In this document: one piece after another, positions 258 to 20,095 of the stretch
How positions within the stretch are numbered: the first letter of the stretch is position 1
Layout: every line of letters begins with the position of its first letter
Assembly: GCA_028687915.1 (NCBI GenBank)
Contig: JAQTZF010000001.1
Coordinates: 866,634 to 930,633, forward strand
Length of the DNA stretch: 64,000 nucleotides
Direction of reading: 5' to 3'
From: Candidatus Daviesbacteria bacterium
Lineage (GTDB): Bacteria; Patescibacteriota; Microgenomatia; Daviesbacterales; UBA10151
Notes under the pieces: generated by a model
Databases searched by the model: none
Seen by the model: the letters and a program-made list of their open reading frames with translations, nothing else
What the model was told of the DNA's origin: nothing
Made by a program: the position numbers and the translations under genes

Positions 258-872
258 TTATCTCTTCTTCTTAATAACCATAAAGCCAATAATTAAGATA
301 ATTGTAGTTAAAATTGCAGCATTCTTTGTATTATTCAACCTGGTCTCCTCTTCACTGATAGATTCCCCTAAGATTGATTGTCGCTTTAACTTAAAGGCAG
401 CGCCGATATTATAAACCCCTCCCCTGCTACCACCTAAATCTAGTGAGTCAGAACTATCAGTTTCCCTGGGTGCAGCAGACCCATCTACAAAAGAAACTGC
501 AGCTTGTCCTAATGATTTACCAATAAATCCAATAGTAGCAATATTAGCGTTTCCTCCAACACCGCTAAAATTTCCTCTTGAAATTTTAATTATTCCATTA
601 CCATATTCACTCTCAGCCTCAATAGAGAATGCAGAAGAGTCATACTTAATCCAGCTAACTTCTAATTTATCAGAAGGATATTTTAAGAAAGCAGATACTG
701 CATTTACCTTATCATTTCCAGCTTTTAGCTTTACCTGTACCGTGTATGTTTTTCCGATAGAAATGTTTCCATCGGCAGGAGATAAATAAAGGGTGTTGGC
801 AAAAGCTGACTTTACAGGTAAAAAAATAAACAAAGTAACTGCTATCAATACAAAAATTAATTTATTCAACAT
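258..872 (-). CDS. Membrane-anchored cohesin-domain-like protein (signal peptide, beta-rich domain, C-terminal TM + KKKR)
   Basis: ORF track. N-terminal hydrophobic signal. Domain paralogous to the N-terminus of 18869..20095 (VNAVSAF..YP.DKL.V...GSAF.I.AE..YG.G.IK.SRG). The C-terminal TM helix followed by basic residues resembles cohesin/anchoring scaffoldin modules. The cohesin call is by motif resemblance only. Confidence 0.55.
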   Translation of the reverse strand: MLNKLIFVLIAVTLFIFLPVKSAFANTLYLSPADGNISIGKTYTVQVKLKAGNDKVNAVSAFLKYPSDKLEVSWIKYDSSAFSIEAESEYGNGIIKISRGNFSGVGGNANIATIGFIGKSLGQAAVSFVDGSAAPRETDSSDSLDLGGSRGGVYNIGAAFKLKRQSILGESISEEETRLNNTKNAAILTTIILIIGFMVIKKKR

Positions 873-876
873 ATAT

Positions 877-1035
877 TTACCGGGTCCATGATCTGAGCAA
901 CATCGAAAGGTCTGTAATATCTACTCTGCCGCTGCCGTTCAAATCAGCCGCACTTCCCCCTCCTTGTCCCCACATTCGAAGGAACATGGATAAGTCTGTT
1001 ACGTTAACTCTGCCATCATGGTTTATGTCTGCACT
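877..1035 (-). other. Dockerin (type I-like, two 22-aa Ca-binding repeats) coding segment at the 3' end of the 1543-aa gene
   Basis: Seen in translation: two DxNxDGRVNxTDLSMxLR repeats. Confidence 0.65.
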
Positions 1036-4000
1036 ACGACCACCTCCACCGCCGCCGGATGATCCACCGCCACCTCCACCACCAGATGAACCACCACCTC
1101 CTCCTCCTCCTCCTCCGTCACTTGATGAAGGAGGAGCTGTTGGAGCAGCAGTTGGGACAACAGTTGCGTCTGCAAGCAGTAAGAAATCTGAGAAGGTAGA
1201 TGTCTGACAAGCTACTATTTTTGCCAATGTATCAAGACTACAATTTGCCAACCGATTTAATGTAGACCCATTAAAGTGATAAATTTCTAAGGTATTTTCG
1301 TCTACACCACCTAATTCATCTGCAGAATAATTAATTTCAACAGTAATAGGATTATTAAATAGATCTACCAATGTAGAAGTATCAGTTAAGGCGTTGAAGT
1401 TATAAGCATGATTTCCAACAATTACTTTTCCTGCGGGTAATGATACAGCTGTTTGCAAAGCTGCTTTCTCTAATCTCTTGATTTGGAAGTGAGCTAGGTT
1501 TGCACTCGAAGAAGCAAAGGCTGGACGGGCAGATAACCGTACCTGTCGCCCATTACCTTCTGTCAAATCAACTGTTCCACCTGAAGCTGTGGCTACTGGA
1601 GCATCTGTAAAAGCCAAAATTGCTGCATTCCCACTACAACCCTTGGTATGCAAAATGTTATTTCCCAAAGTGGTAATCGCTGTAGACTGATCATCAGATA
1701 CCAAACGATAACTGTAAGTAGAACATTTGGCCAAACCAGGAATAGATATTTCATGATTTGTGGTTCCCGCTGGATCTACTTTAGCAGTAGATTTATCATA
1801 AGACCCTGGTAAACCATATTCAATTTGAGAAGAACCTTCTATATTAGTCGACCATCTAATAGTTGCTGCATCTGAAGTTACTTCTACATCTGGTAATGTA
1901 ACAATAGTTAATTTATTAGATGGTGTCACTTCCAACCTTGGATCAACAGAAGTAACACTGGTATTATCATCAAGTAAAGTTGCTCTAAAGTAATAGGTTG
2001 GAGCAAGTAAAGTAACTCCAAAAATACTGACTGGTCGATATTCAGCAATCCAGCGGGTTTGATATAAAGTAGAGTCAGATAAAGTAATAGGATCTGGATC
2101 AGCTGTTACTGCGCTATCACCAATTGGTCCAATACCGGCTTTTCTTACATTCCAACCCACACGTTTGCCATTACACTCACCCTTAGTGGAAACAGCAAGA
2201 TTTACCTCAGATCCTTCAGTTACTTTAGCAGCTGGGGCACTCCATGAAGCAGAAGTTAAGGCACAGGGCTCCGGAGCAGGGGTAGGTGTTGATGTAGGTA
2301 TTACAGTTGGAGTTGGGCTAGCTGTAGGAGTTGAAGTCATGGTTGGAGTAGCAGTTGGAACTCTAGTTGGGGTAGGAGTGTTAGTTGGGGCACTTGTTGG
2401 TGTTGATGTTAACGTTGGTATTGGCGTTTGTGTAGGAGTTTGGGTGGGTGTAGGGGTGGATGTTGGTGTATTAGTTGGAGTTGGTGTAGCAGTTGCTGTT
2501 GGTGTTGGAGTTGGGGTTCCACCTGTACCAGAGGTAACAGTGAGTAGTGATTGAGTGGTATTAACAGTATTACCCTGAGTTAAGGTAGCATTAAAGTAAT
2601 ACTGGGGATCTGTAAGTGGTATTAAAGGATTATGTTCAGAAATCCAGGTGGTAGTAGCCAGATTAGAAGAAGACATAATAACAGTTTGTGGGTTTGGTTG
2701 ATTAGTAATTACAGATGGATCATCACCTAATCCATTTCTTCTAACCTCAAAGGTTATACTCTTTCCAGTACAGTCTCCTGTACCATTTACTCTAAGGGTT
2801 ACCTCAGCACCTGTGGTTACATTGTTACTGCTCCAGGAAGCTGTGGATAAAGAACATGCTTGTCCTGTAACAGTATCAGACCACACATAACCTTGGTAGG
2901 CCTTAATAGTTTCAGCTAGCTTGTTCATATAGAAGAAATCACTTCCATCAGTTAGCCAGGGGTAGCTAGTATATTTCTGAAGATTTTGTGGAGTATCATT
3001 TTGCAGCAAAGCTTTTGCCATAAAAAGTTGATAAGAATTGATAGGATATGTTGTCCCATGTTCCCCTCCTACAACATCTTCCATATATGGCATATACCAA
3101 TGTGGCATTAATGTAGTGAATTTATTGACAAAAACCTCAGCATCCTGTTTTGCAAAATCTGCAATTATTCTCAAAGTTTCTGGAACCATATCGTTATAAG
3201 CTGATAATTGAGCCATTTGCAGATATTCATATCCTCTTATTTCCATGGGTATTGGCGGATAAAAACTGGTGCTATCTGCTAAAGAGGTACTAAATTGATC
3301 CTGAACTGCAATTTGCCTGGGGTCATCATATGCTCCTCTCCAGTTATAATTCCAAAGCCATCCTGGCCAATCCCCTGCTCCATACTTAGGCATCCAATCA
3401 GGGTCAGTTGGTAAAGTTTGTAAACCAGAGGAATAAAGGTAGCGCGGATATATTGTCATAGCAATTCTTTGTGTAATAGTTTTAGCGAGCAGCGCTCTGC
3501 CAATATTTTCATCACTATCTCCGTTTGCTTTTGCTAACTTAATAAATCCAATTAATCCATCTAAAAGCCGGTTTGTATTTATTAATGTAGAATGCCCGCT
3601 TACCACTCCTACATTAAATCCTCTAAACCAGGAAGAAGTAGCCCAATCATGCTCTGCCATATCATTATTCAAAGCAGTTTTTGCAGCAGTAAGAACTGAA
3701 GCAGGGATAGAACCAGTTGAAGGCAACTCGTAATAATTAGCTAAGGAATAAAAATTATAAAGAGGAACACGTTTGAGAAATAAATGAGGATTTCGTTGCT
3801 GAAAGGATTGAAAATTATTTCTTCCCCCATCTACACTACTCGGTTCATTGTTCCTGACAGCATAATCAGTACGCTGAGTTCCTAAATTAGGTAAATTATA
3901 TACAGTTTCCGGTCTGTAACTGGAATTAGTTCTTTCTGATTTTATATATTCAATCAAACGGTTTTTGGGAGCTTGAGGGTCAGAAGAATCAGGTAAAGCA

Positions 4001-5508
4001 TGTGCTGCTGCAGTGAGCTGATGGATAATATCAGCTGGATTTAGATAGTAAATATAGCCGGCAGTATAATCATTTAACGGAAGATGTACAGGATAAATCC
4101 AGGGAGAGAAATGACCAGCCTGAATAGTTTTATCAACCTCAGCAACAAGCTTTTGGATTAATTCAGCTGGTGCTCCACTTGGATTAGTAGGGACTCTTTG
4201 GGAATCAGTATATTTCTTAAGTCCTGAGATAGAATAAGAGTAAGTGTTGGTATTATCTATACCAATGATAGGACCAAATTCTGTAGAGTAATTAGCATCA
4301 GTTAGAGTTCCTGTGATATTAGCATGGATTGCATCTTTGGCTAAGGATAATAATGGAGGTAAAATAGCAAAACCTGAGGTAGTAGATCCTCCAGAACAGA
4401 CATTAAGATAATTAATGTTTTCTGTAATTGTTGAAGTATCAGTATTAGCATCATAGTTATATGTTTCTGATACTGTAGTAGGATAACTACATAATCTGTT
4501 TGTCCAGAAGTTAATCTTAGAAATAACATTAGCAGGTAATGTTCCTGTTCCCCAGTTTTCTGTATCAGAAGCTCTTAAGTGTTCCCTGCCAAACAAAGGT
4601 AACATAGAAGTATTACCAGAGTTAGTGCTAAATGTTAAATCTATTCCTCCTTCTGTAGTTTGTTTAATGCTGGTTGGATTATTCTGGAATTTAAGGAGTA
4701 TGGGAGCATCAGCTTGGTAGGCTTGAGAATGAGGTAGAATATTTCTATTATCACTATCATAATATGTAGCTGGAGACTTAGTATCAGCAAAATGTGAATT
4801 ATTTCCATACCAAACTAATACCCAGTTATTATCCAGAGCTGGTAAGGTTAAAGCTGCAGCACCTGAGGCTGGAATAGCCTGAACTTGGATATTTCCACCT
4901 ATTGAGTAAGCAATATATTTAGGTGAAGATGGAGATGCAGTTCTATTATTAACAACAGTTGGATCATAGGATGGTCCACTATAACTAACTATTGCTCCAT
5001 TTAAATTACCAGAAAATAGCCTTAAGGAATTATTTAAGTTTTGGATTAATATAACTGGAGAAAGCCTGGAAACCCAAATATTCAAGTTATTGGTAAAAGT
5101 CATCTGATTATGTGACCAATCAGCTGCTTGATCGCTTAAAGCAGGTGTAGTTTCCGGAATCTTAATTTGCCCTAACTCAATGCCTTGCAGAGGTCCATAG
5201 AGACGGCCCCACCCTATATTAGCTGCTCCACCCTGCAAAGACAAAGATGGTATACCGGAAACCCGAACTGTTGTTATTAAACCAGCTGTTTGATTACCAT
5301 TAACTGTTGAGGACCTAAGTCCCATAGCCCCTGTCTGCCAAATAGACGGATCAACAGTTTGAGCATTAACTTCGCTTAAGCTAAAAGTTAAAAATGCAAA
5401 GTTAAAAATTAACCACAAAGATATTATTTTTAAAATATCTTTACGTCCCGCCTTGGCGGGAGGCAAACTTTGTTTGATTCTTGAATCGTGAATCCTAAAT
5501 CTTATCAT
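877..5508 (-). CDS. Giant secreted modular protein (1543 aa): N-terminal alpha-rich domain, two copies of a ~110-aa two-Cys module, Thr/Pro linker, FN3-like domain, Gly tract, C-terminal type-I dockerin
   Basis: ORF track. C-terminus [20 protein letters not shown] ... [20 protein letters not shown] is a duplicated Ca-binding dockerin repeat (established motif D-x-N-x-D-G-x-V-N-x-x-D). Signal-peptide-like N-terminus. 4-nt start/stop overlap with neighbours. Confidence 0.8.
1036..1125 (-). repeat. Low-complexity Gly/Ser tract coding region ([26 protein letters not shown])
   Basis: Plus strand reads ccaccgccgcc/ccacctccacc repeats. Translates on the minus strand to poly-Gly immediately before the dockerin. 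Confidence 0.8.
2278..2527 (-). repeat. Thr/Pro-rich linker coding region (ACN-CCN repeats; appears as GTNGGNGT on the plus strand)
   Basis: Translation [32 protein letters not shown]... Similar linkers at about 11270..11390, 14330..14380 and 18230..18330. Confidence 0.8.
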
Positions 5509-8500
5509 TATGGATTAACCTCCCTAACGATTAACTCATGAGTGCTAATATGGTAAATCTTCCCATTAGAGATAGAGGCTGGATTAGATCTGCCTTCTAA
5601 CTGAGTCGACATTTGCCGGTTACGGAAACCTGCACCAATTTCTGTCCAGCGGCGGTTAGTAAGATCAAAAGCACCGGTGTAGTTAGCATTGCCTTCCTGA
5701 ACATGGAAAGAAAAAATTGTATTACCGGCACAAGTTGGATTTAAGTTCTCGTCAGCATTACCAAACCCTGCAGGATTATTAAAGTTAGAAAGTGAGAATG
5801 GCTGACCATTTCTACCATAATTATCAAACAACACATCAACTAATCTTTGGCGACCCAAATCTAACCGTCCCCAACCACTCATTAAAAAGCTCACTGGTAT
5901 TACCAAATACCCATCTTTATCAACACAAGGAGCGCTTTGGGCACCACTTAAACTTTGGGCATTCCAGTTTGGAACTGCAGTTGTTTCTCGACCAGTTGTT
6001 TCATCAAGGAGATAAATAATTTTATCTGTATATTTACCAGGATTATTTTGATAATCCTGCATCACAGTATCCTGAACACTCATAGCTAAAGGCACCTGAG
6101 TTAAATTACCAGCAGCAATCGTTGGTCCATTAGTAATATACCAGCTTGCCTGAGGGCTAGCAGCATCCCAAAATTCATTTAAAGGATACCCTGGATTAAT
6201 ACCAGCATTAGCTCTTTTAGCCTGAGGTATTATTACTACTTTTCCCTGGGTAACAACTGGCCAGTATTCTTTGAAAGAGACACCTGGAATTTTCATATCT
6301 GCTCCTTGAGCATTTTTACTTCTCCAAGAAAGAGTACCATCAGCTGTATTAATGGCGTATACATACATATTCATCCCCCCAAGAAAAGCTCTGTTTATAT
6401 TATCAGCTCCTTTATTAAAGGCAGCAGTCATCATAATAGGAGCCCCAGTGTTATAGCTCCAAAGTACATTACCATTATCAGGATTTAGACCATAGAAAAT
6501 ACCATCATGTCCTCCCAGCATTATTTTATTATCAGCTATAAGTGGAGCAGCTGAAAAGCCCTCTTGATTTAGTTTCTTCTGCCAAACCTGATTACCATTC
6601 ATATCAACCGCATATACTGAACCATTTAAAGTAGCAAAGAAGACTTTATTGTCATAAGCTGCAGCTGAGTTTAGGATTGATCCATCAGCTTCAAATTTCC
6701 AAACTACCCTTCCTACATTTGCATTTAAGAGGTTAGGATTTACTGCATCAATCGCATAAAGAGTTGGTTTTTGACCATTAGATCCTTCAGTGCCTACAAA
6801 AACTTTGCCCTGATAAATAATAGCCTGTGTTTGAGGATGAACCCTATCGGGCTGGAATGGATAAGTCCATGAAACCTTAAATCTTTCATGAGGGAGAAGA
6901 GAATAATTAATATTAAAGTTCTCAGCTGAATAACCTGTATGTTGTGGATCTTTCCCAACCTGTGGCCAATCATTAGGATTACCTGGAACAGGTGTTGGAG
7001 TAATATTTGAGGTAACAGTTAACATATTATTTTTGTTATCTAAAGTATTACCTCCGGTTGTTGAGGCTTTAAAGTAATATGTAGGATCACCCAAAGATAT
7101 ACCAAGTAATCTTAATGGGTTAAATTCAGATACCCATGATCCTACTCCCTGCCCCTGGGTATTTAAAGTAATAGCCTGAGGCTGAATGTTTGCTAATATA
7201 TCATCCAAAGCTGTAGATCCATATCTTCTAACCTCAAGGTTAACTTGTTTGTTAGCACAATTAGTATCACCTACTACATTCAGATTAACAGTACTTCCCT
7301 GTGTAGCAGTTAAAGTATTCCAGGCAACAGCGGTTAGATTACATGGAACTGCTCTTAAGTCTACCCAAGTAGTTGTTCCATAAGCTTCAAGAGTTCTTGA
7401 AAGCCTTTCCCAATAGAACAAATCTTCTTTAACCCAAGGAATATCCAAATACTTCCTGAGTTCATCCCCACTCTTTTTAGCTCCCAAAGACTTCATTAGG
7501 AAAATTGACTGAATATTATGTGGATTTACGTACATAATTTCTCCAGCAAAGCTATTCATACCTCTTTGCATATAAGTGATTGGCATAGCTTGATCAAAAA
7601 ACTGTTCATATCTTTGGACATCAGATGAACCGAAGTCAGTAAGCAATCTAGCTACTTCTGGAGTTAGCTCTCGAAGCTGAGGAATGTTAGTATCCATTGC
7701 CCCAGATCTTTGAACAAATTTACCTGCAGTACCATCCTGACCATTAATCCAAGCACTGGTATTTGGATCACTTCCATTCCCATCAGTTGGCCTTAAATTA
7801 TTAAGGTAGCGAAGCCTGGCTTGCATTGCTAAAGTTGCTAAATTAGTGGCCCAAGTAACCTCTGTTTGATCGTTCATATGTTGGGCAATACGGGCATAAG
7901 CAATTAATGCTGATAGCCTGCGGTTAGCGGAATCATACACATTAATACAAGAAGCACCAATACAAGATGGGTCCACTGATGCCAGACCCAACAACCCAGC
8001 GTCTCCACTAGTTAATTCACTAAGAACAGACCCTTTTACTCCATTAGCACCAAAATTGGGATTTTTAATCTGATCCCAATGACTTTCAATCCATGTCCAA
8101 TCATTAGCTTGATAAGCATAGCTCCAAATATTATAAAGTCGGTCAAATGTTTTTCTGGTAGGAACAAAAGTGCCACCCCAGGTAATACCTTCACAAGGAC
8201 TTTGGCTAGTACCGCCTTGGAAATTACAATACCTGAAAGGTCCCGGAGCAAATGGTTGACGAGACTTATTATTATCCTGGGTTACAGTACTATTGGTATA
8301 TATTAGACCATCGTTCCAGGGATAACGTTTTTCTGGTGAAAAAGAATCAATTGGATTCAAATTTGAATTATTCCATTCATTATTTACAAAAGTTTTGATC
8401 TGATTTTGTAGGTTTGATGACAAATAAGGATAAGCCAATGAAAGATAGAAGGCTGTTTCTGATGGTTCTAAGTAATAACCCTTAAAAACTTCCTTACCTG

Positions 8501-11500
8501 GAATAAAAATCCATGGGTTAAGCCTGCCTGTTGTTAAGAAATTATTAACTTCTGTCTCCAAAGAAGTTCTTAAATCAGCTGATTTATTGATATCTATACT
8601 AGTCTTTGTAGGCACTTCCCAAATATAATGCTCAAGCTCAGCTTGAGTTGGAATATTTACAGCTGCTGCTGAAGATGTGGCAATGCTTTGTCGAGGATAA
8701 GGAGTAATAGTTGGTATTGGGGTTGGACTTACTCCTGGCAAGTGACCCTGAACCATAGCCACTATTCCACCGTAGTTAACAATAATTTTATCACCAGAAA
8801 CAGATGGGCCATAAGAAGTGCCACCTGCAAAATCATTAGGCACTAAACCAAAATTAAGAGTTCGGGGATTATGATCTACTAAGTGGTTTGCAAAATTATC
8901 TCTTTCACCAATGATTGATTCTAAATCACCAGTGTTAGTATTTATACTTCCTAACCCTGCCCATTGATTAGTATAAATTTTATTACCAGCTGCGGAAAAA
9001 GCTGTTGTTTCGTCTCCAATCATCCAAATATTGGAGTTAGATTGATTATTACAAGAAACAGTATTACAAAAAACTGGGTTATTGCTTGGGTTCCTCAGAG
9101 TAACATTACCAGTGGCTGGATCCATCTGGCCAAAGCCATTCATAATATACCATTGGTTATCATTATCGTAGTCAGAGTAATAGCTGCGATTTAAAACCCA
9201 AAGTTGCCCAGTGTTGTTAACTACTGGAGGTACTCCAGGATAACCATTACCTGCTGTCCAGAGAATTGGAGCAGTGTAAGATTTTTGGCCATTACTAATA
9301 TTCAAAACATGGAAAGTTTCAAATTGGGGCCTACCGGAAATTGTTTGGCCATTTGTAGCAGTAAAAGTATTCCCTTGTAAGTAATTGCGGATCGTATTTT
9401 GTTCCCTGGTAATACCAGCAGAATCAGTTGCCACCCTCCACTGGAAACAAGGGATATTATTACGATTAAGCCAACCACGACTCGTAGGATAGTCATTACA
9501 ACCAGCGCTAAAGGCAAGTAGTTTTTCTTCCTCGTTTAGAACAGAATTAACATCATCATTTGGAGCTGAACGGAAAATAACTTTATCATTGCTAATTACT
9601 GGATAGTTTCCTCTTAAGCTTTGACCAGCTAACTGAGATGATTCCCAGAGTTTTGTACCTGTAGTATTAAAGGCATAAGCCTTCATGTCTTCTGCGCCAA
9701 AGTAAATAGTTCCATTAGCAAAAGCTGGTGAAGTTAAAATTGCTGTTCCAATATTAGCTTCCCAACGTCTATTGCCATTATTTTTATCAATAGCATAGAA
9801 ATAACCATCACGGCCACCAATGTAAACAGAATCATTTGTCACAACTGGAGTGGCCCAAAAACCACCTTGTCTGCCACTTCTAAAAGTCCACTTAACAGCG
9901 GGCACACCATTTGTAATACTGTTGCCATCAATGGCATAAACATTACCATCTAGGGAGCCTACATAAACCACCCCTCCTTCAACTGTTGGAGAATTTAAGA
10001 TTCCACCAATGAATTGTCCAGATTGAGGATATCGCCAAGCCTGAGCACCAGTATTAAGATCCATTGCATACATTGAGCCATTGGCAGTACCAATATAAAC
10101 TAAGTCCCGGTTATTCGGTATATCACGAGCAATTGGAGGTTGGTAACCAGAAACTACTTCTTCCTTAAATTCTGACCAAAAATCACGATACCAAACTTTG
10201 GTATAAGGTCCATCAGGACCATTTTGGGTTGATCCGGATCTTTGATTATCATGAGCCAAAGTGGGCCAATCAGTAGAGCTAGTTGGAATTCCTCCGGTAA
10301 CAGTAAGTAAACTGCCTTTATTATCAATAGTATTTCCTCCAGCTACATTAGCTCTAAAATAATATTGAGGATTAGTAAATGGAATTAATGGATTATGTTC
10401 TGCTACCCAGGTGGTAGTAGCTGAACCTGAAGAGATATTAGCTGGTTGAGGTTGGATAGTAGCTGGAATATCATCAATTAATAATCCATTTCTTCTTACC
10501 TCAAAGTTAACCGTCTTACCATTACAATTATTATCTCCTGTAACATTTAGATTTATTGTTGATCCAGTAGTAGTGGTTTGAGTACTCCAGGAAGCTGTAG
10601 TTAGATTACATGCTGCTGGGGTTGGTGTAGCAGTAGGAGTAGGAGTTGAAATTAAGTCAGGATCAGCATTATAAACATTAATATTATCAAAGTAGGCTCT
10701 CAAACTATGTGAATGCCACCAATCTTGCACACCAACCGCTATTTGAGGTAGGTAAAAAGTCCCTGTTGAAGAATCTGTTATTTGAGCTACTTGAGTACCA
10801 TCAATCCAAAGGCTAGCAATAGCCCCTGTACCACTCCAGTCATAACTCCATTTCCAAGTCTGCCAGGTATTTATAACAGGAGCATTGGTTAAATCAGCAC
10901 TAATATTATTACCATTTAGTCCTCTAATATTAAATTGATATCTAGAAGTAGTTTGGTTATATGAAACCCACATAGTCCCACTATAAACTGGTGCCTGATC
11001 ATACCAAGCTAGAAAAACAGCTTGAGTAGTTAAATTAGATCTTAAATTAACATCAAGCTTGCCCCATAATTGCTTAGAAGCAGGACTTGAGACAGTTCTT
11101 AAAGCTACAGCTCTCATGCCTTCGTTAACTGCTGGTACAAAAGCATCCAAGCCTAACGAGCCTGATCTGGCAGCACTAGATGAAGCAACTAAAGTAGATC
11201 CTGTACCTAAAATAGAAGTACTAGTCCATTTGCTTAAGTTATTTCCCTCAAAATCATCATTAAAGATGGCTTGTGCAGATCCTGGTGTAGGAGTAGCAGT
11301 TGGAGTTGGTGTAGGAGTTGGTGTGGCTGTAGCTGTTGGAGTAGCTGTTGGGGTTGGTGTTGGTGTTCCACCTGTACCAGAAGTAACAGTTAATAAATTA
11401 GCTTTATTATCTATAATATTACCACCTTGAGTAGAAGCTTTGAAGTAATACTGTGGATCAGTAAATGGTATTAATGGATTATGTTCTGCTACCCATAATC

Positions 11501-12896
11501 CTGTTCCTGTTCCCTGAGCATTAAGAACAATAACTGCTGGCTGATTAGTAGCTGGAATATCATCTAAGGCTGTTGAACCATTTCTTCTTACTTCAAGATT
11601 AACTTGTTTGTTAGCACAGTTTGTATCACCTGTAACATTTAGGCTTACTGTTAATCCAGTAGTAGTGGCTTGAGTACTCCAGGAAGCTGAGGTTAAATTA
11701 CAAGGAGCTGAAGTTGAGGAAGGTGCTTCAATAGCAGCTACTAACTTTTGCATATAGAGTAAATCACCTTTTCTATCTGGTTTATCTAAGTAGCTTTTTA
11801 GCTGAGTAGCTGAATTACCTTCAACATATGCTTTAAGCATAAAATAAGTCCAGGAAATCTCTGGTGATGCATAAGAACTTTCACTCCAGCTTATAGCAGA
11901 AGAATTTAACCAACCCATGGGCACATCAGTTAGGATCTTAGAGGCATAAGCTCCAGCTTGAGCAGCAGCATTATCTTTAAGAAAACTTCCTACTTCCCTG
12001 CTAAAGAGTAATCCTACAGGATTTCTTTGGAACATAAAAATTGGAGTAGTATAACCATAATCTAAAGGATTATCCAAATTAAAAGCATTAGGGAATTTTG
12101 TTTTAGCATTGGTCAAAAACTGATTAAAATTAACACCACTGGCAAAACCAGTTTCAGCAAAAGCTAAAGCGTCATTATAATCAGCTGTATTTCCTAAATG
12201 CTGGGCAATTCTGGCAAAACCAATAGCTCCTGATAAATCACTATATGTAGTAATACCCGCAGTCTTAAGGTTTGTATAAATAGTCCTTAAGTCATTGTAG
12301 CTGCTTGTAGCATATGCCCAATCTCCGGTGTTTTGTGAATAAATCCAAATTGCATAAAGAGCAGCTGGATTTACTCTCGGTGCTACCCAGGTATTTGAGG
12401 CAGGCGGATCTTTATGCCAATAGCTAAAATTCTCATTAGGATTGGGAATAAAATACTCTCTTCTTGCCCCAGGTAACTGAGAAATATTACCTGCTGCATT
12501 TCCATTTGGATTAGTAACTGGATAAAAAGAACTTGAATGTGGAGGATAACTGCTAATTTCATTTTTTAAATAATTGCTAACTGCAGTTTTTAAACCAGGA
12601 GATAAATAAGGATAGGCTGCACTTAGGGTATAAATTGTCTCAACTGGGGAGGAGTAAAAAATCAAAGGATTGCCTCCTAAACCTATAAAATATAGTGTTG
12701 GCGCCATATGTCCAGCACTAACCATTTCTTGAACTTTTACTTCTAATTCGCTTTGTAGATCCTGAGTATCAGCTGTAATACTTACTGGCTGAGGGATATT
12801 GTTAGTGTAATTTTCATAGGCAGCTTCAACTTTACCAATTCCAGAGAAGATAAATAGTAAGAATAAAATTCCTAGTTTTAAGAATATGTTTTTCAT
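5508..12896 (-). CDS. Giant secreted modular protein (2462 aa): duplicated [alpha-rich N-domain - two-Cys module - PQQ-like beta-propeller] architecture plus a LamG/concanavalin-like region
   Basis: ORF track. Signal peptide. Repeated 'YAIDxxxGxxxW' blades typical of PQQ-type beta-propellers at about aa 880-1180 and 2020-2300. Three copies of the ~110-aa CNLTSASW...PQYYF module. AYPYLS-containing N-domain occurs twice. Confidence 0.8.
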
Positions 12897-15800
12897 CTAA
12901 TAGTACCTTTCACTGCCATAATGGTGCTGTAATATAAGATATAAAAAGTATCCCCCACAATTGGTGTTGGGCGTTTAATATCATTACAGTCACTATTAAC
13001 TTCAGAAAAAGGTGTATCAATACCCCCAGATGGGTTTATACAAATCCATTCAGTATGTCCTGGATAAAGGACAATTGGTGGATTGCCAAAAATTCCTCCG
13101 CTTGTAGTGTTATAACTGGAAAAAGGTAAATTAGTCTTGTTTATAGTATCCAGTCCTATATCGCCTCTACCAGAGCTTACATAAACAATATCTCCACTAC
13201 GCATGAGTGCTGAAGACTCATCAGAAATTAAGGGGGCTTTATAATTTCCGCAAGTATCGGCACGAGTTCCTCCACCTGGCACACAGGTATCAATTGGCAA
13301 AATATCGTTATCTGCTGATGTTAGCTCGCCCACATATAAAGCAGAATAAGTGGTAGCTCCAGAAGTAGATAGCTCGCCAAAAGACCTCCTATAAATTACA
13401 TCAGCATTGCCATTTGGCAGCAACACTGGTTGTGCATGAGGTGCTTGGCTACCACCAGAACCATAAAGAATAGGTGCAGGTAACTCTGCTCCAGTATTCT
13501 GATTAACTACATGAACTGGTTGGTTATAAGGATGTGCTTGGAGATAAGATAAGATCATTGATCTCTGAACAGACCATGGCTGGTTATAAATCAATGGGTT
13601 AGCAGTACCATTAAATAAATATGTTCCCTCAGTCAAAGATGCACCCTTCTCGCCATAAAGCATTGGAGTGAAAAGAACTTTACCATTTCCAGCAACTGTC
13701 CATCTGTCTCTAAATCCTTGCCCAGGGATTTTAATATGCCAGGCTTCAGAGCCATCTGATATATTCAGGGCATAGCCCACAGAATCCATACCACCAAAGA
13801 AAACTCTATTATTATCAATAGCAGCTGTATCATAAATTGGTGCACCAATATCATGCTTCCACACTTGAGCTCCGGTACTTCCGTTAATGGCATACATATT
13901 GCCATCAGAAGAACCAATATAAACAATCCCATTTGCAATAACCGGGGCTGTTTTAACAGTGCTGCCAGTAAGAACTTTCCAAGCTAAAGAACCATCATTG
14001 GCGTTCACTGCATAAATATTATGGTCAGTTGAACCAAAGAAGACCCTGCCATTATCATAGGCTGCAGAATTTACCAAACCGCTACCAGTTTTATAAGACC
14101 AAACAGTATGACCATCAGTGGTACTTAAAGCATAAAGAGAGCCATTATTTGATGGCAAGAAAACTAGATTTTGAGCAATAACTGGTTGAACTCTGGAGGA
14201 AACTGGGAATGGTTTATCCCTTTTCCAAAGCACTGCTGAAGATGAAGTTGGCGGCAAAACTGTTTGGGCAACATAACCTGAGTGATTAGCATCTTTTTGA
14301 ACTTGAGGCCAATCAGTAGATGATGCTCCTGGGGTTGGTGTTAAGGTTGGGGTTGGAGTTCCACCTGTACCAATTGTAACTGTTAACAATCTTGGATTTG
14401 ATTCAATAGTATTACCTCCAGTGGTTGTAGCTCTAAAGTAATATTGAGGATCACCCAAAGGCACACCAAATAATCTTAATGGGTTAAATTCAGCTACCCA
14501 TGATCCTGATCCTTGTGATTGAGCATTAAGAGCAATAGCTGCTGGTTGAGTGTTAGCCTGAATATCATCAATTGTTGATCCATTTCTTCTAACCTCAAAA
14601 TTAACTTGTTTATTTGCACAATTCGCATCTCCTGTAACATTTAAGTTAACTATTGTTCCAGTAGTAGTAGTTTGAGTATTCCAGGCAGCAGAAGCAAGAG
14701 TACAGACAAGAGACAATGTGGTATTTTCAACCTTAACAGCTATGTCTTTATCTAAATTTAAGACAGTAAGATTAATGTTACCAGTTTGATCTACTATAGA
14801 AGTATCTGTTTTTAGTGTGGTACCTGTGTAAGTATCAACCCAGGTTACTGTATAAGAACCAACAGGCATACCAGGAATAGTTACAGTTCCTGACTGAACA
14901 GCTATTGCTGTAGGATTATTTACCACATTACCCCAGGTATGTGTTTTATTATCTATCCAAACATGAGCTTTCCCATTTACTGTATCTTTTTGTCCCCAGG
15001 CTCTGATATTAGTATTATTTGAGGTAGCTCCAATATCCTGATAATTACCATTGGATAAAGGAATATCTTTAATAAAGTTATAATAAATTCCATACTGAGG
15101 TCTTAAATCTCTACCTGCTGGATAAATGTGTTCTCCACCATACCAATAAGATTCAATTAAACCACCTGAATTAATTCCTCCCCAAATATATTTATGTAAC
15201 CAAATTCCTTGGGTATCATTATTAAAAAGTGTTGTAGCAGCCCAATTACTATCAACAAAACCAGTTTCTCCTCTCATGACAGGTTTATTGACTCCAAATG
15301 GTTGTTTTGCTCCAATTTGTTGGCTAATTTTATTAGCTTCCTCAGCTGAGTCGTAATAATCAGCAATTGTGCCAATATTTGTCCCTGCGCCATTAGTAGG
15401 CTTATCAACCCGAAGATCAAGGTTTGTCCCCTGAAGAATATATTGATGAACGTCTGCATAATCTACATCAGAATAGTTGTTATTACCCCAAAAACCAGTT
15501 GTGGGAAAACTGTGCCAGTTAGATGTGGTCACTAAGTGGGAATTGGGACCAAATTGATGCATATACTTGCCTAGATTATTAGTTAATGTATAGTGAAGTC
15601 CATTATAAGGATCTCCCTCATTGTTTAGCTCCCAGGAATGAACATTGGGAGAATAACCCCATCTGGCTTGTAAATATCTCCACCAGGCTTGTTGTAACCA
15701 ATAAACCTTTGTTGGTTGACCCCAATTACCGTAATACCATTTATTACCCATAAATGGACACTCTGCTGGGTCATTCTTTGGATCAGAATCCCAACATTCT

Positions 15801-18800
15801 TGAACATTGGGAATAACTTTTCCATCATAATTAATACTATTAGCAATAATCTCATTTTTTTCCTGAATTACTAACTTAAAATAAACATTATCCTTCTCAG
15901 CTTCTTCTAAAACTTTATCAAAAGCATAGGCCATTTTTTGTTCCATATACTGATGGTGAGCCATCCAGGATTTTTCAATAACATTTGGTCCTAAACTACC
16001 ATCTGGGTTAACTTCGTTAACATCAACTCGGTCAATTTGTACAAATGCACCGCTTCCAGTTAAAGGAGTTAAATTATCAATATTCTCAATGGTTAAGTAG
16101 AAATTCAACATAAAATCACGGTTAGCATCACTGGTGAATTCTCCAGTTAAAATTGACCATTGTGGATTACCACTACCATCTTTTGGAGAGGTAGAAGCGT
16201 AATTACTAACCACATTACCAGTACCTGGATTAAAACAATATGTTGGAGGATTATCAGTTGGACCCCATAACCAAAACCCAGTCTTTGCTACGAGGCCATA
16301 AGGCTTTGTTGGATCTTTAGGAGCAGGCAAATTCTGGGGCATTAAGTATTTGATACTAACTCTATACTTAGTGTTTGGCTTGAGTGCTGGTGAATCTTTA
16401 AGCCATCCAGTAAAAATACAAGGATTCCAATATTGCTCTAGTTCCATAGAAACATCGCTTCCTGGGGCACCAGGTAACCTGGTATCAATTGAGGAAAAAG
16501 GTATATAACCCCCATACCACCCACCAGTATGAGAATTCCAGGGATTCCAAGCTGAAGAGTTAATACTCCATCCAGACAACCATACCCTAAGTAATTGAAT
16601 TCCATTTTGACCAAATTTTGGTAAGTTAGTCTTACTACTGGTAATAGGATTCTCAGAAGGTATGCTAGTATTCAGGCTTAATCCCGGGAAATATGTACCA
16701 TCCTGGTACTCAAAGTATCTTGTGTCTGTTTTGGAGACTTTAACAAATCCATGGTTATTAGGATCAGCAGCAGAAACAATAAATGTTTGGGTGGAAGAAG
16801 TGACTTTTCCACCAGCATCCTGAGCAGTTAATCTGTACTGCCAGGTACCTTCCTGAGTTGGAGAAAACCTTAATTTCCAGGAATAGTTTGTGGTTGGATA
16901 AATCCAGTCTCTGCCACCTTTAACCTGATAATCAAAGTCCTGGTAGTAGAAAGCTGGTTGAATAGAAGCTTTAGCCCAGTCAGTTTCTCCTGGAGCTAGG
17001 AACTCTCCATTAACAGTAATACCTTCTTTGGGAGTAACACCTGCAGGAGGTGTTTCATCATATGGCATCTGTAAGTTGGTAGCTACAGTATTGTTAATTT
17101 GGAAAGTAGATTCAAATTTCTCATATTTAGGTACTTGGGAATTAGTGTAAGTAGAAATATTATCTGAAATGTTACCAATCTGAGGACCACCCCCTGCTAA
17201 CCCTGTAACGGTTAACAAGTTCGCCTGAGTATCAATTGTATTTCCTCCCTCAGCACTGGCTGTAAAGTAATATTGAGGACTGGTGAAAAGAATCAAGGGA
17301 TTATATTCAGTTACCCAAGAACTGGTCCCTGTACCACTACTACTCAAAGTTATTCCCACAGGATGAATAGCAACATCATTACCTCCAGTGGTTGATAAAC
17401 CATTTCTAACAACCTTTAAGCTTACTTGTTTATTAGCACAACTACTGTTCCCTGATATTACCAAACTCACAGTACTGTTTTGAGGAGCTATTAGTGATTG
17501 ACTCCCTGGAACACTCCAGGAAGCAGATGTTAGCTGACAAGCGACAGGTGTTGGAGCAGCAGTAGGTGTTGCAGTAGGCGTTGTGGTTACAGTAGGGGTT
17601 AATGATGATTCACTCCATCCACTAATTCTTGCCATCATCACCCAAAAAGCCTGAGCTACCCTTTGTGATCCTGCAGCAGTTAGATGTCCTCCATCAGAAG
17701 AATAAGCAGGATACATAGCTTCCAGACCACCTGAGGTAATAGCATTACCTGCTGGATCATGTGATTCAATAGCAGCCAGATCAAAAAGAATTATATTGTG
17801 GGTAGCTGCATAAGTTCTTAAATTATTATTAAAAGCATCTCTTGAGGGATCACCTGAGGTCATAATGGGCATGGTCCACCAGATAAACTTTTTGGTAGGA
17901 TAGGCAGCCATTAAAGCTTCCATATGGGTTCTGTAATAATTCCAGTCAGCTCCCTGATCTATATAGCAAAACTTTTGTGAGAGAACATCCATTGTGCTTG
18001 CTTGTAGGGCTACCTGAACATCAAAATCATCCACCTTTGCCTGCCAGCCAGGATTACCTCTGGCCTGAAAAGACCAGTTGGTTCTGTTGTATTTGGTGTT
18101 TTGAGCAGTGAGAGCATTTAAACCATCATTAATATTTGATCCCACTGAGGCATGTCTGAACATCATTCTTAAAGCTGAGGCTTGAGTAATTACAGTATCA
18201 GGCAAGTTATTAAAACTTGTAACATTTTGATGATTAATAATAAATTTTGTACTTGAAACTGTTGTTGGGGTAGGAGTGGCAGTTGGAGTAGGAGTAGATG
18301 TGGGGGTTGCAGTTGCCCGTGGGCTAATAGTTGCAGTGGGTGTGGTTACAGGAGCAGCAAAAACCTCCAAAGATGCTAACTGATAATTTGATTGGCTGGA
18401 ACCTGTATTTGCCCTTATTAATAAATAACGTCCTGAACCTAAAATAGATGAGTTAAAATCTCCATTAATCCCGCTTCTTACCACTGTAAAACCTACACCA
18501 TCATCAGATAATTCAATATTATAATTTGTGGCTAGATTATTACCCCATTTTACTGTAACCGTCCCAATTGAAACAGTCGAACCCAAATCAATACCCAACC
18601 ATTGAGCCCCCCCAGAACCAGAAGTCCAAAAAGTAGACACATTCCCGTCAACTGCATTAACAGGACTAGATCCGGCTGCAGTGGAAGAAACACTAATAAT
18701 AGGCTTATTTAAAGCTAAATCCCCGGCAATTTGGGCATTAGCATTTTGAGTAGACTTAATAATTCCAAATAAAGCAACTAGAGTAAAGAGGATAATACTA

Positions 18801-18850
18801 AAACTTAAAAAAAATTTTCTGATAACCAAGAATTTGTTTTTTATCTTCAT
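12893..18850 (-). CDS. Giant secreted modular protein (1985 aa): F5/8 type C (discoidin) domain, SGNH-like region, two-Cys modules x2, GH5-like (cellulase family A) domain, C-terminal PQQ-like beta-propeller
   Basis: ORF track. N-terminal discoidin-like segment (NAVDGNVSTFWTSG...). 'HSWELNNEGDP' and 'RGETGFV' resemble the GH5 acid/base NEP and nucleophile motifs (assignment by motif only). YAV/YAI propeller blades at the C-terminus. ATGA start/stop overlap with 5508..12896. Confidence 0.75.
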   Translation of the reverse strand: MKIKNKFLVIRKFFLSFSIILFTLVALFGIIKSTQNANAQIAGDLALNKPIISVSSTAAGSSPVNAVDGNVSTFWTSGSGGAQWLGIDLGSTVSIGTVTVKWGNNLATNYNIELSDDGVGFTVVRSGINGDFNSSILGSGRYLLIRANTGSSQSNYQLASLEVFAAPVTTPTATISPRATATPTSTPTPTATPTPTTVSSTKFIINHQNVTSFNNLPDTVITQASALRMMFRHASVGSNINDGLNALTAQNTKYNRTNWSFQARGNPGWQAKVDDFDVQVALQASTMDVLSQKFCYIDQGADWNYYRTHMEALMAAYPTKKFIWWTMPIMTSGDPSRDAFNNNLRTYAATHNIILFDLAAIESHDPAGNAITSGGLEAMYPAYSSDGGHLTAAGSQRVAQAFWVMMARISGWSESSLTPTVTTTPTATPTAAPTPVACQLTSASWSVPGSQSLIAPQNSTVSLVISGNSSCANKQVSLKVVRNGLSTTGGNDVAIHPVGITLSSSGTGTSSWVTEYNPLILFTSPQYYFTASAEGGNTIDTQANLLTVTGLAGGGPQIGNISDNISTYTNSQVPKYEKFESTFQINNTVATNLQMPYDETPPAGVTPKEGITVNGEFLAPGETDWAKASIQPAFYYQDFDYQVKGGRDWIYPTTNYSWKLRFSPTQEGTWQYRLTAQDAGGKVTSSTQTFIVSAADPNNHGFVKVSKTDTRYFEYQDGTYFPGLSLNTSIPSENPITSSKTNLPKFGQNGIQLLRVWLSGWSINSSAWNPWNSHTGGWYGGYIPFSSIDTRLPGAPGSDVSMELEQYWNPCIFTGWLKDSPALKPNTKYRVSIKYLMPQNLPAPKDPTKPYGLVAKTGFWLWGPTDNPPTYCFNPGTGNVVSNYASTSPKDGSGNPQWSILTGEFTSDANRDFMLNFYLTIENIDNLTPLTGSGAFVQIDRVDVNEVNPDGSLGPNVIEKSWMAHHQYMEQKMAYAFDKVLEEAEKDNVYFKLVIQEKNEIIANSINYDGKVIPNVQECWDSDPKNDPAECPFMGNKWYYGNWGQPTKVYWLQQAWWRYLQARWGYSPNVHSWELNNEGDPYNGLHYTLTNNLGKYMHQFGPNSHLVTTSNWHSFPTTGFWGNNNYSDVDYADVHQYILQGTNLDLRVDKPTNGAGTNIGTIADYYDSAEEANKISQQIGAKQPFGVNKPVMRGETGFVDSNWAATTLFNNDTQGIWLHKYIWGGINSGGLIESYWYGGEHIYPAGRDLRPQYGIYYNFIKDIPLSNGNYQDIGATSNNTNIRAWGQKDTVNGKAHVWIDNKTHTWGNVVNNPTAIAVQSGTVTIPGMPVGSYTVTWVDTYTGTTLKTDTSIVDQTGNINLTVLNLDKDIAVKVENTTLSLVCTLASAAWNTQTTTTGTIVNLNVTGDANCANKQVNFEVRRNGSTIDDIQANTQPAAIALNAQSQGSGSWVAEFNPLRLFGVPLGDPQYYFRATTTGGNTIESNPRLLTVTIGTGGTPTPTLTPTPGASSTDWPQVQKDANHSGYVAQTVLPPTSSSAVLWKRDKPFPVSSRVQPVIAQNLVFLPSNNGSLYALSTTDGHTVWSYKTGSGLVNSAAYDNGRVFFGSTDHNIYAVNANDGSLAWKVLTGSTVKTAPVIANGIVYIGSSDGNMYAINGSTGAQVWKHDIGAPIYDTAAIDNNRVFFGGMDSVGYALNISDGSEAWHIKIPGQGFRDRWTVAGNGKVLFTPMLYGEKGASLTEGTYLFNGTANPLIYNQPWSVQRSMILSYLQAHPYNQPVHVVNQNTGAELPAPILYGSGGSQAPHAQPVLLPNGNADVIYRRSFGELSTSGATTYSALYVGELTSADNDILPIDTCVPGGGTRADTCGNYKAPLISDESSALMRSGDIVYVSSGRGDIGLDTINKTNLPFSSYNTTSGGIFGNPPIVLYPGHTEWICINPSGGIDTPFSEVNSDCNDIKRPTPIVGDTFYILYYSTIMAVKGTIR

Positions 18851-18868: not shown

Positions 18869-20095
18869 TTAATTATTACCTGGTGGTGCTTTTGGCATCA
18901 CTTTATATTTTTTTCTTAAAAGTAGAAACATTATTCCCATAACTACAACAGTAACTGCAACCACTCCAAGGAAAATTATCCATTGTGACAATCCAGTTTT
19001 TTCATACCAATTATTTACTGGATTTACCTTAAAACTAAATTCATTTCCTTCTTGTGAAGTAGCAGCACCCAAAACATTAATTTCAAATGTTTTTTCAGAA
19101 CCTGGTACTCTAATAACTACTAGATGTTTATCTGCAGAAACATTTGTAAAAACTACTTCTCCGTTTTCATTTGTTATTCCTCTTTGAGGATCACTGTAAA
19201 GCAAAACTTCAGCATTCTTCAGGAGTGTACCCTTTTCATCTGTAACCTTAACTTTGATTTGAAAACCAGGAATTTGGAATTCTTGGTCTACACTTTGTAC
19301 TTGTGAACCAAAACTATCTATAGATTTAACTCTATAGTGAATTTTATATCCGGGTAACATCATTGCACTTTGGAGCTTAACTTTGTGTTGCTTTAACAAA
19401 GTTTCTGAAGTTGATGATAAAAAGTAATTACCTTTTTCTAAGCCGTATTCCACAACTGAATTTGCCTCCCTGTCAGTCTTCCAGGTAATCGTTGCACTAC
19501 CAGAAGCAACATCTGCTGCTGCTATATCACTTATGAGTAACTGGTCCACACTATTATCAGGTGTAGCTACAGGCTGTCCTGGTTTAGTTGTGGTTTTAGT
19601 ACCAGCCTTAGGAGTTGGCGCAGCTGCTTGGCCACCAACAGTAATTGTTGCACCACCACTTCCACCAAGATTTAACGAATCAGAACTATCAGACGCTCGT
19701 GGGGCAGATGATCCACCAACAAATGATAATGTAGCAGCTCCTGCAGATTTCCCCTTAAAGCTTACTGTGGCAACATTAACACTTCCGGAAACCGCACTCA
19801 GACTTCCCCGGGAAACCTTAATCATTCCCCCACCATAAGAATTTTCTGCACCTATCCCAAAAGCTGAACCAGGATTTACAGATAATACATCAAGCTTATC
19901 CGCTGGGTATGCTAAAAAAGCAGAAACTGCGTTAACAGCATCACCTCCGGTGTTTAGTCTAATAGAAACTGAAATAGTGCCACCAATAGGAACAGTTGTT
20001 TTTCCGGGAGAAACAGATAGAGTGGAAGCAATTATTGCTTGAGGCATTAATAAAAATAATGCAGCCACAATAATAATTAATGAAAATATCCTCAT
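18869..20095 (-). CDS. Membrane-anchored cohesin-like / FN3-like / CarboxypepD_reg-like protein with C-terminal TM anchor
   Basis: ORF track. N-terminal domain paralogous to 258..872. Middle 'ATITWKTDREANSVVEYGL' is FN3/PAP-N-like. 'KVKVTDEKGTLLKNAEVLLYSD..NGEVVF' is a CarboxypepD_reg/Cna-B-like fold. C-terminal TM + RKKYK. Confidence 0.6.
   Translation of the reverse strand: MRIFSLIIIVAALFLLMPQAIIASTLSVSPGKTTVPIGGTISVSIRLNTGGDAVNAVSAFLAYPADKLDVLSVNPGSAFGIGAENSYGGGMIKVSRGSLSAVSGSVNVATVSFKGKSAGAATLSFVGGSSAPRASDSSDSLNLGGSGGATITVGGQAAAPTPKAGTKTTTKPGQPVATPDNSVDQLLISDIAAADVASGSATITWKTDREANSVVEYGLEKGNYFLSSTSETLLKQHKVKLQSAMMLPGYKIHYRVKSIDSFGSQVQSVDQEFQIPGFQIKVKVTDEKGTLLKNAEVLLYSDPQRGITNENGEVVFTNVSADKHLVVIRVPGSEKTFEINVLGAATSQEGNEFSFKVNPVNNWYEKTGLSQWIIFLGVVAVTVVVMGIMFLLLRKKYKVMPKAPPGNN

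Follow-up and report, generated by a model that had tools for sequence, protein, structure and literature searches.

Seven copies of an uncatalogued, predicted Ig-like module in three giant secreted-protein genes of a Candidatus Daviesbacteria genome

Several described systems resemble the element analysed here. The Fn3-like and Ig-like 'X' modules of secreted multidomain enzymes lie directly against a catalytic or binding domain and have no catalytic residues of their own, and the C-terminal Fn3-like domain of GH3 β-glucosidases (PDB 6r5i and 5xxl; Pfam Fn3_like) is a β-sandwich of about 100–120 residues. The Big_3_5, Big_1 and DUF11/CARDB surface repeats are extracellular, repeated β-sandwich spacers. 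In bacteria, the repeat modules of surface proteins can evolve in concert, through intragenic and intergenic gene conversion among the repeated domains. Here we analyse a stretch of 64,000 nucleotides (the window) from a 1.10 Mb contig of a Candidatus Daviesbacteria metagenome-assembled genome (MAG), which belongs to the Microgenomates, within the candidate phyla radiation (CPR). Three co-directional, closely packed giant open reading frames (ORFs) on its minus strand, g1, g2 and g3 (MDD2823346.1, MDD2823347.1 and MDD2823348.1), span a region in which a two-cysteine module recurs. The explanation that we favour as the probable one is that the window holds seven paralogous copies of an uncatalogued extracellular Ig-like domain of about 110 residues, with an accessory or connector role. 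All window features given below lie on the minus strand.

A six-frame hidden Markov model (HMM) scan of all 64 kb finds exactly seven modules, with domain E-values from 1e-23 to 1e-34, and the next best match has E > 0.3. The scan profile was built from 70 sequences, only the first of which (M2a) comes from this window. An earlier note on this DNA had also counted seven copies, at coordinates within about 30 nt of those of the scan. In g1, M1a (2527..2859, residues 884–994) is accompanied by M1b (1912..2268, residues 1081–1199), the most divergent copy. In g2, the copies are M2a (11376..11705, residues 398–507), M2b (10290..10613, residues 762–869) and M2c (7005..7346, residues 1851–1964), and g3 carries M3a (17198..17542, residues 437–551) and M3b (14369..14707, residues 1382–1494). 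The opening motif that the note had described is recovered as C-x-L-(T/S)-(S/T/A)-(A/V)-(S/A)-W, with a second cysteine 28 residues on. Invariant among the seven copies are C2, L4, W9, C30, K33, W71, E74, P77, P84 and Y86-Y87-F88. These proteins are compositionally biased, with long Thr/Pro and Gly/Ser runs, and the repeats might be suspected of being a chance or low-complexity artefact of a Thr/Asn-rich composition. However, this suspicion is refuted by pairwise BLASTP E-values down to 1e-35, by domain E-values of 1e-23 to 1e-55, by the 216 cluster representatives that reach E ≤ 1e-10 in the database search described below and by a structure model with a confidence score of 95.

The copies are well separated in sequence. 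Their pairwise identity is 35–69% in amino acids and 47–74% in codon-aligned nucleotides; the best local blastn pairs reach 70–75% over 306–367 nt, a repeat finder reports 60–78% for sub-stretches only, and the longest exact runs common to copies are 9–26 nt. The DNA-level description in the earlier note, of 330-bp repeats about 80% identical, is therefore too high on both the codon-aligned and the blastn measure, and the consensus string that it quoted is matched by only two copies at three or fewer mismatches.

The note had further stated that each copy is followed by a (TP)n linker. This holds for four copies: M1a, where an 86-residue Thr/Pro-rich linker (2269..2526) leads to M1b; M2a (31 residues, 11283..11375); M3b (13 residues, 14330..14368); and M2c (a 7-residue stretch). 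In M1b, M2b and M3a, however, the linker precedes the module, in the first case as the same 86-residue stretch and in the other two at 10617..10646 and 17558..17599, respectively. The arrangement that does apply throughout the window is one-sided: every copy has a linker on one side and a folded domain directly abutting on the other. The abutting partner is a helical domain placed directly before M1a, M2a and M2c, a propeller directly after M2b and an Fn3-like domain directly after M1b. In g3, M3a runs directly into a region with a stretch resembling a DUF5060 protein, and M3b abuts the region that precedes it. Beyond their linkers, M2c and M3b are each followed by a propeller. A Thr/Pro linker as a feature of the whole family was considered and rejected: a stretch with more than 50% Thr, Pro or Ser follows only 16% of 237 modules and precedes 22%.

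The module belongs to a large family. An exhaustive HMM search of 1.84 billion representatives returned 625 proteins with E ≤ 1e-3, of which 216 reach E ≤ 1e-10; the 625 are cluster representatives at 50% clustering, and family proteins often hold two to five copies of the module. A word-indexed protein search with module alignments returned nothing, which we put down to the limits of the word index and not to absence. The 241 full-length modules taken from the top 150 proteins conserve C2 at 100%, W9 at 99%, C30, W71 and Y86 at 98%, F88 at 95% and P84 at 90%. The consensus of these modules reads C-x-L-T-S-A-x-W-S...E-G..V.L.V.G...C.G-K.V.F.V.E.D...P...W.A-E.Q.D...P-E-Y-Y-F.A, which can be shortened to the signature C-x-L-T-S-A-x-W ... 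C-x-G-K ... W-x-A-E ... P-(E/Q)-Y-Y-F-x-A.

This signature does not lead to a catalogued family. The seven window copies match no Pfam family at E below 0.03. Seventy diverse relatives, scanned singly, give no Pfam match at threshold, the best being Big_3_5 (E 0.037, in four members), and against NCBIfam they give nothing above the curated cut-offs, the best being a single unrelated match at E 0.0063. Searches of the PDB sequences with profiles of seven and of 70 sequences reach a best E of 1–2. The module also has no match to Cohesin or Dockerin_1, which are separate domains of the same proteins. A literature search with the motif strings, and with CPR/DPANN combined with dockerin or surface-protein terms, found no account of it. 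Thus, the description of the module as undescribed, already made in the earlier note, holds within the libraries searched. Kinship with DUF11 (PF01345, the TIGR01451 repeat) was tried as a specific candidate and rejected (hhalign probability 0.2%, E 0.25, nine columns), although the DUF11 alignment used was a shallow one of four domains and gives the comparison limited power.

The predicted fold is of a common type. The AlphaFold2 (AF2) model of the module is a β-sandwich of eight strands with a mean predicted local distance difference test score (pLDDT) of 94.9 and a predicted template modelling (TM) score of 0.86. A Foldseek search of one module against the PDB, as the earlier note had proposed, gives generic Ig-like matches only: the GH3 C-terminal Fn3-like domain, an α2-macroglobulin MG domain, nanobodies and NPC2, at E 2e-4 to 2e-3 and TM-scores of 0.5–0.58. 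Against BFVD the matches are viral Ig-like domains, with a best TM-score of 0.71. Accordingly placed at the level of fold only, the modelled module is an Ig-like or E-set β-sandwich.

These structural matches bear on the possibility that the module is a divergent member of a catalogued Ig-like family, such as Big, CARDB, DUF11, an Fn3-like family or an InterPro or ECOD entry. The Ig-like Foldseek matches at E of about 1e-4 and the sub-threshold Big_3_5 matches in four of the 70 relatives (E about 0.04) would fit such a membership, as would the stand-alone homologs of the helical domain, in which DUF11 takes the same architectural position after that domain. However, all 77 sequences stay short of every curated Pfam and NCBIfam threshold, hhalign assigns DUF11 the negligible probability given above, the TM-scores against the PDB do not exceed 0.58 and no relevant paper turned up for the motif strings in the literature searched. 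We regard membership in a catalogued family as improbable.

The disulfide-bonded, Ig-like fold, one of two options that the earlier note had mentioned (Ig-like or CBM-like), gains support from the cysteines as well as from the confident sandwich model. Besides the conservation of C2 and C30, the cysteine count is almost always even: exactly two in 195 of the 241 modules, four in 43 and an odd number in only three. The extra pair of the four-cysteine modules is confined to one loop in 37 of the 43 (positions 77–82 in 31 modules and 41–48 in six). A near-invariant pair, and extra cysteines that come in pairs, point to disulfides. The C2–C30 bond would pin the N-terminus to the B–C loop, and such a staple suggests a domain built for an extracellular setting. 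The proteins that carry the module are multidomain proteins with signal peptides.

A second conserved feature is an acidic cluster, E41, D43, D78 and E85, in which all four positions are acidic in 108 of the 241 modules. In the Microgenomates subtype, which includes the window copies, the four residues are jointly replaced by R, G, L and Q. From the sequence pattern, the cluster could be a metal-binding site that was lost in the window subtype.

The source names of the relatives include Daviesbacteria, Levybacteria, Patescibacteria, Woesearchaeota and Pacearchaeota. Of a sample of the representatives, most come from CPR bacteria or DPANN archaea by the names or genome titles recovered. When species-representative genomes were scanned for the major subtype (E-x-D ... 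A-E-W-Q-x-D ... P-E-Y-Y-F), with a tighter DPANN-type alignment that samples this subtype only, 64 loci were obtained, mostly in MAGs of Nanoarchaeota, Woesearchaeota, Pacearchaeota and Micrarchaeota. With its major subtype lying mostly in MAGs of DPANN archaea, the family thus extends across both DPANN archaea and CPR bacteria. The bins of a few scan matches carry the labels Omnitrophica, Thermodesulfovibrionia, Kiritimatiellia, Colwellia, Gammaproteobacteria or Methanosarcinales, some of which may reflect errors of binning or classification.

The partner domains of the module are varied. Among 65 shorter relatives, Dockerin_1 was found 12 times, Cohesin eight times, and DUF4215 and the pilin N-methylation motif (N_methyl) five times each, together with MopE, LamG, fn3, glycoside hydrolase (GH) and polysaccharide lyase (PL) cores, CBM96, PA14 and subtilase (S8). 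Three relatives, P0037, P0042 and P0052, are type IV pilin-like, with an N-terminal methylation motif followed by the module and then a C-terminal domain. Pfam also finds GH130, GH32N and LamG-type domains among the 65 relatives, not assigned here to particular carrier proteins. The arrangement suggests pilins with enzyme or lectin cargo.

This context raises the possibility that the module is primarily ligand-binding, either as a new carbohydrate-binding module (CBM) or as an adhesin that targets enzymes or pili to a polysaccharide or host-cell surface. It occurs with glycosidase- or lyase-like, CBM32-like, CBM96, LamG and PA14 domains and on type IV pilin-like proteins, and its frequent two to five copies per protein recall CBMs and adhesin repeats. 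The conserved aromatics W9, W71, Y86, Y87 and F88 could serve a binding surface, the acidic cluster could bind Ca2+, and the hosts are episymbiont lineages (CPR and DPANN) that must attach to other cells. However, no sequence match to any Pfam CBM or PDB entry was found. Viewed as a CBM in the CAZy sense, the module is found with GH- and PL-like domains but also with S8 peptidase, cohesins, pilin N-termini and propellers, and the subtilase, cohesin and propeller partners show that it is not specific to carbohydrate-active enzymes (CAZymes). The best-conserved residues appear to fit the core of a β-sandwich with its disulfide pattern, and the acidic cluster would be dispensable because the window subtype lacks it. 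A primary binding function is thus unlikely in our view, yet it deserves serious weight among the alternatives.

A role as accessory or connector is instead indicated by the one-sided linker rule together with the variety of partners, which includes a protease and pilins, and by conserved positions that look like a sandwich core plus a staple, in a domain that resembles the Ig- and Fn3-like modules of CAZymes.

The earlier note had also proposed that the module mediates domain shuffling. This is supported in relatives, by two chimeric proteins and by the tracts of a syntenic operon, whereas the window itself holds only weak echoes of it. The first chimera, P0004 (1909 residues, present in two NCBI assemblies), combines a part like g2 residues 8–505 (53.5% identity) with one like g3 residues 438–1728 (52%). 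The second, P0020, combines counterparts of g1 residues 26–989 (55%) and g2 residues 1742–2461 (42%). In both, the switch of parentage lies at or in a module. In a third relative, P0002, two modules are 97% identical and their flanks are unrelated.

The P0004 locus is a syntenic operon of four genes, A (3805 residues), B (P0004), C (1054 residues) and D (1486 residues), in GCA_027372145.1 and also in GCA_027342865.1. Gene D, with its dockerin, is orthologous to g1 (51% identity). In a self-blastn comparison of this operon (locus L065), three tracts coincide with the module borders: 1228–1562 versus 11145–11479 (91.3% over 335 nt), 4887–5268 versus 13892–14273 (93.2% over 385 nt) and 8112–8566 versus 16983–17422 (80.4% over 459 nt). 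The homologous block of A and B is 37.7% identical overall at the protein level, and windowed identity rises to 95–100% inside the module only. Over its first visible 517 residues gene A is 70% identical to g1 residues 474–989; however, its module (A_413) is 95% identical to the gene B module (B_386) and only 49% identical to M1a. Such a pattern is what gene conversion restricted to the module leaves behind.

In the window, modules are 50–87% identical while their paralogous flanks are 13–48% identical. Conserved residues use the identical codon in 65% of cases in the four core modules and in 50% in the flanks (p = 4e-6, from pairs that are not independent). M2a appears as a mosaic of M2b-like and M2c-like sequence (maximum χ2, p = 0.002, across six tests), and a quartet test favours within-genome grouping at ten sites to four. 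Of 34 modules in the DPANN loci, 12 are closest to another module of their own genome, compared with a shuffled mean of 0.6; recent gene duplication could be an alternative cause.

We also considered whether the module is real but mediates no recombination, the higher similarity of its copies being due to stronger purifying selection acting on a small domain and the mosaics to independent fusions or duplications of whole cassettes. The low identity of the window copies, with exact runs of at most 26 nt, is what this explanation expects, the quartet support is modest, and a nearest neighbour in the same genome is seen for only about a third of the DPANN modules. However, selection alone cannot yield nucleotide identity of 91–93% confined to the module within blocks so diverged in protein sequence, nor a module 95% like the copy of another gene beside a flank 70% like a different gene, nor the 97% pair with unrelated flanks in P0002. 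The higher synonymous codon identity in modules than in flanks also argues against it, and we give this explanation little credence.

In the favoured explanation, each copy would pack directly on one neighbouring folded domain and be tethered on the other side by a flexible Thr/Pro linker. The module would act as an accessory, spacer or stabiliser, like the Ig- and Fn3-like 'X' modules of CAZymes, and would probably serve enzymes displayed on the cell surface through a cohesin–dockerin-like system encoded in the same six-gene cluster, described below. It would also be a unit of gene conversion and a junction for the exchange of domain cassettes between giant genes. Conversion and exchange are observed in the related syntenic operon; for the window, the mosaic and codon signals alone point to them. 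Several observations weigh against this explanation. At 47–75% identity and with such short exact runs, the window copies are too diverged for ongoing homologous recombination, so that the earlier note's view of them as good present-day substrates is not supported. The codon test depends on non-independent pairs and the quartet test on a difference of ten sites to four. The acidic cluster hints at a functional site that a spacer role does not explain. Both the C2–C30 contact and the packing against neighbours are inferred, and the purely structural role is argued from context, where a binding function would give the same architecture.

A bolder version would make the module a surface domain specific to CPR and DPANN, exchanged between Bacteria and Archaea, which binds host or substrate surfaces and whose DNA is kept similar by conversion, making it a movable 'joint' at which enzyme and adhesin cassettes could be swapped between the genes of surface proteins. 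The cell would then have a built-in means of varying its surface repertoire. We consider this version a long shot.

The translations of all three giant proteins begin with signal-like hydrophobic segments. g1 (877..5508, 1543 residues) comprises a signal peptide, an N-terminal region, a helical domain, M1a, the 86-residue linker, M1b, the Fn3-like domain, a Gly/Ser run and a type I dockerin at the C-terminus (895..1032, residues 1493–1538). The Gly/Ser run is pure over 26 residues (1039..1116, residues 1465–1490), just ahead of the dockerin, and differs in type from the Thr/Pro linkers elsewhere in these proteins. g2 (5508..12896, 2462 residues) comprises a signal peptide, a helical domain, M2a with its linker, an unassigned region, M2b, a PQQ-like β-propeller (Pfam-matched core 9570..10109, residues 930–1109), a second helical domain, M2c and a second PQQ-like propeller (Pfam-matched core 6213..6728, residues 2057–2228). 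g3 (12893..18850, 1985 residues) starts with a signal peptide and an F5/8 type C (CBM32-like) domain (18452..18697), which resembles the discoidin domains of a chitosanase/glucanase. An unassigned region, M3a, the region with the DUF5060-protein-like stretch, M3b and a PQQ-like propeller (13664..14248, residues 1535–1729) follow. The DUF5060-protein-like stretch (16568..16963, residues 630–761) matches the solved 'DUF5060 domain-containing protein' 9gmj with a whole-sequence E of 2.6e-16. The CBM32-like and DUF5060-protein-like matches in g3 support a glycan-processing role for the cluster.

The helical domain, of about 370–450 residues, is itself unannotated. Its three copies in the window lie immediately before a module: g1 residues ~428–883 (2860..4227) upstream of M1a, g2 residues 25–392 (11721..12824) upstream of M2a and g2 residues ~1404–1850 (7347..8687) upstream of M2c. 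Stand-alone homologs of 400–510 residues occur in Microgenomates, Patescibacteria and a Chloroflexi MAG, with DUF11 or dockerin tails and no Pfam domain for the helical part. The AF2 model has a pLDDT of 80, and its PDB matches are weak (E ≥ 0.07, TM-scores 0.3–0.44); many of the better-ranked ones are (α/α)6-barrel glycosidases or lyases. By its model, the helical domain is possibly a new CAZyme-like family.

The giant genes are flanked by two smaller, related ORFs. The downstream one (258..872, 204 residues) has a signal peptide, a domain of 150 residues and a C-terminal membrane anchor, and is possibly cohesin-like. The upstream one (18869..20095, 408 residues) has a signal peptide, the same 150-residue domain, a CarboxypepD_reg-like domain and a C-terminal membrane anchor. 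The two N-terminal domains are 50% identical (E 5e-46). They align weakly with the Pfam-annotated cohesin of the relative P0021 (25% identity, E 2e-4), and a direct Pfam scan of them gave no match. Further upstream in the same orientation is an ORF of 567 residues with no family match (20092..21795), which has an N-terminal membrane segment and a Thr/Ser/Pro-rich C-terminal tail. Gene junctions in the cluster overlap by 1–4 nt (at 5508, 12893–12896 and 20092–20095) or are separated by 4–18 nt, a spacing that makes it probable that the six genes between 258 and 21795 form a single, translationally coupled operon. The proteins of this six-gene cluster are secreted and probably process glycans. 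The dockerin on g1 and the membrane-anchored flanking ORFs suggest a cohesin–dockerin-like surface display system in a CPR bacterium. Upstream of the cluster lies a seven-transmembrane (7TM)-type histidine kinase gene (21862..24084), whose product might regulate it.

A large part of microbial diversity belongs to the CPR bacteria and DPANN archaea, lineages that rely on contact with other cells and whose surface proteins mostly lack annotation. With the module defined, a domain found in hundreds of protein clusters can be searched for by its signature and has a confident model, and the domain parsing of giant 'hypothetical' proteins improves. The definition also brings to light, in a Daviesbacteria genome, a cluster of secreted and probably glycan-processing enzymes with a cohesin/dockerin link. 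In the P0004 operon, the tracts offer a natural example of how large surface-protein genes can evolve in concert and exchange cassettes through a small common domain. In summary, the module is a new sequence family within a very common, ordinary fold, with no new mechanism demonstrated; its CPR/DPANN distribution and the module-precise conversion in a related operon add to its interest.

Of the described systems, the GH3 C-terminal Fn3-like domain is the best Foldseek match (E 2e-4), and the module shares its size, its β-sandwich form, its position next to a catalytic or binding domain and its lack of catalytic residues; however, identity is only 8–12%, there is no Pfam match and the module has a signature of its own, C...C / W / W-x-A-E / P-x-Y-Y-F, and a conserved, probable disulfide. 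It also differs in distribution: by the source names available, it occurs mainly in CPR bacteria and DPANN archaea. The MG domains of α2-macroglobulin and C3 (PDB 2p9r) are Ig-like sandwiches of similar size that align over the whole domain with TM-scores of about 0.57–0.60, but at 12% identity, a root-mean-square deviation of 5.3 Å and in another biological context, so that the likeness is one of general fold only. Unlike the module, the Big, DUF11 and CARDB families lack a conserved cysteine pair and the PEYYF motif. Finally, in comparison with the concerted evolution of surface repeats, the modules are not in tandem but dispersed singly among unrelated domains in several genes, and the window copies have diverged as described; nevertheless, the P0004 operon, with its module-precise tracts of 91–93% DNA identity and modules decoupled from their flanks, shows the same behaviour.

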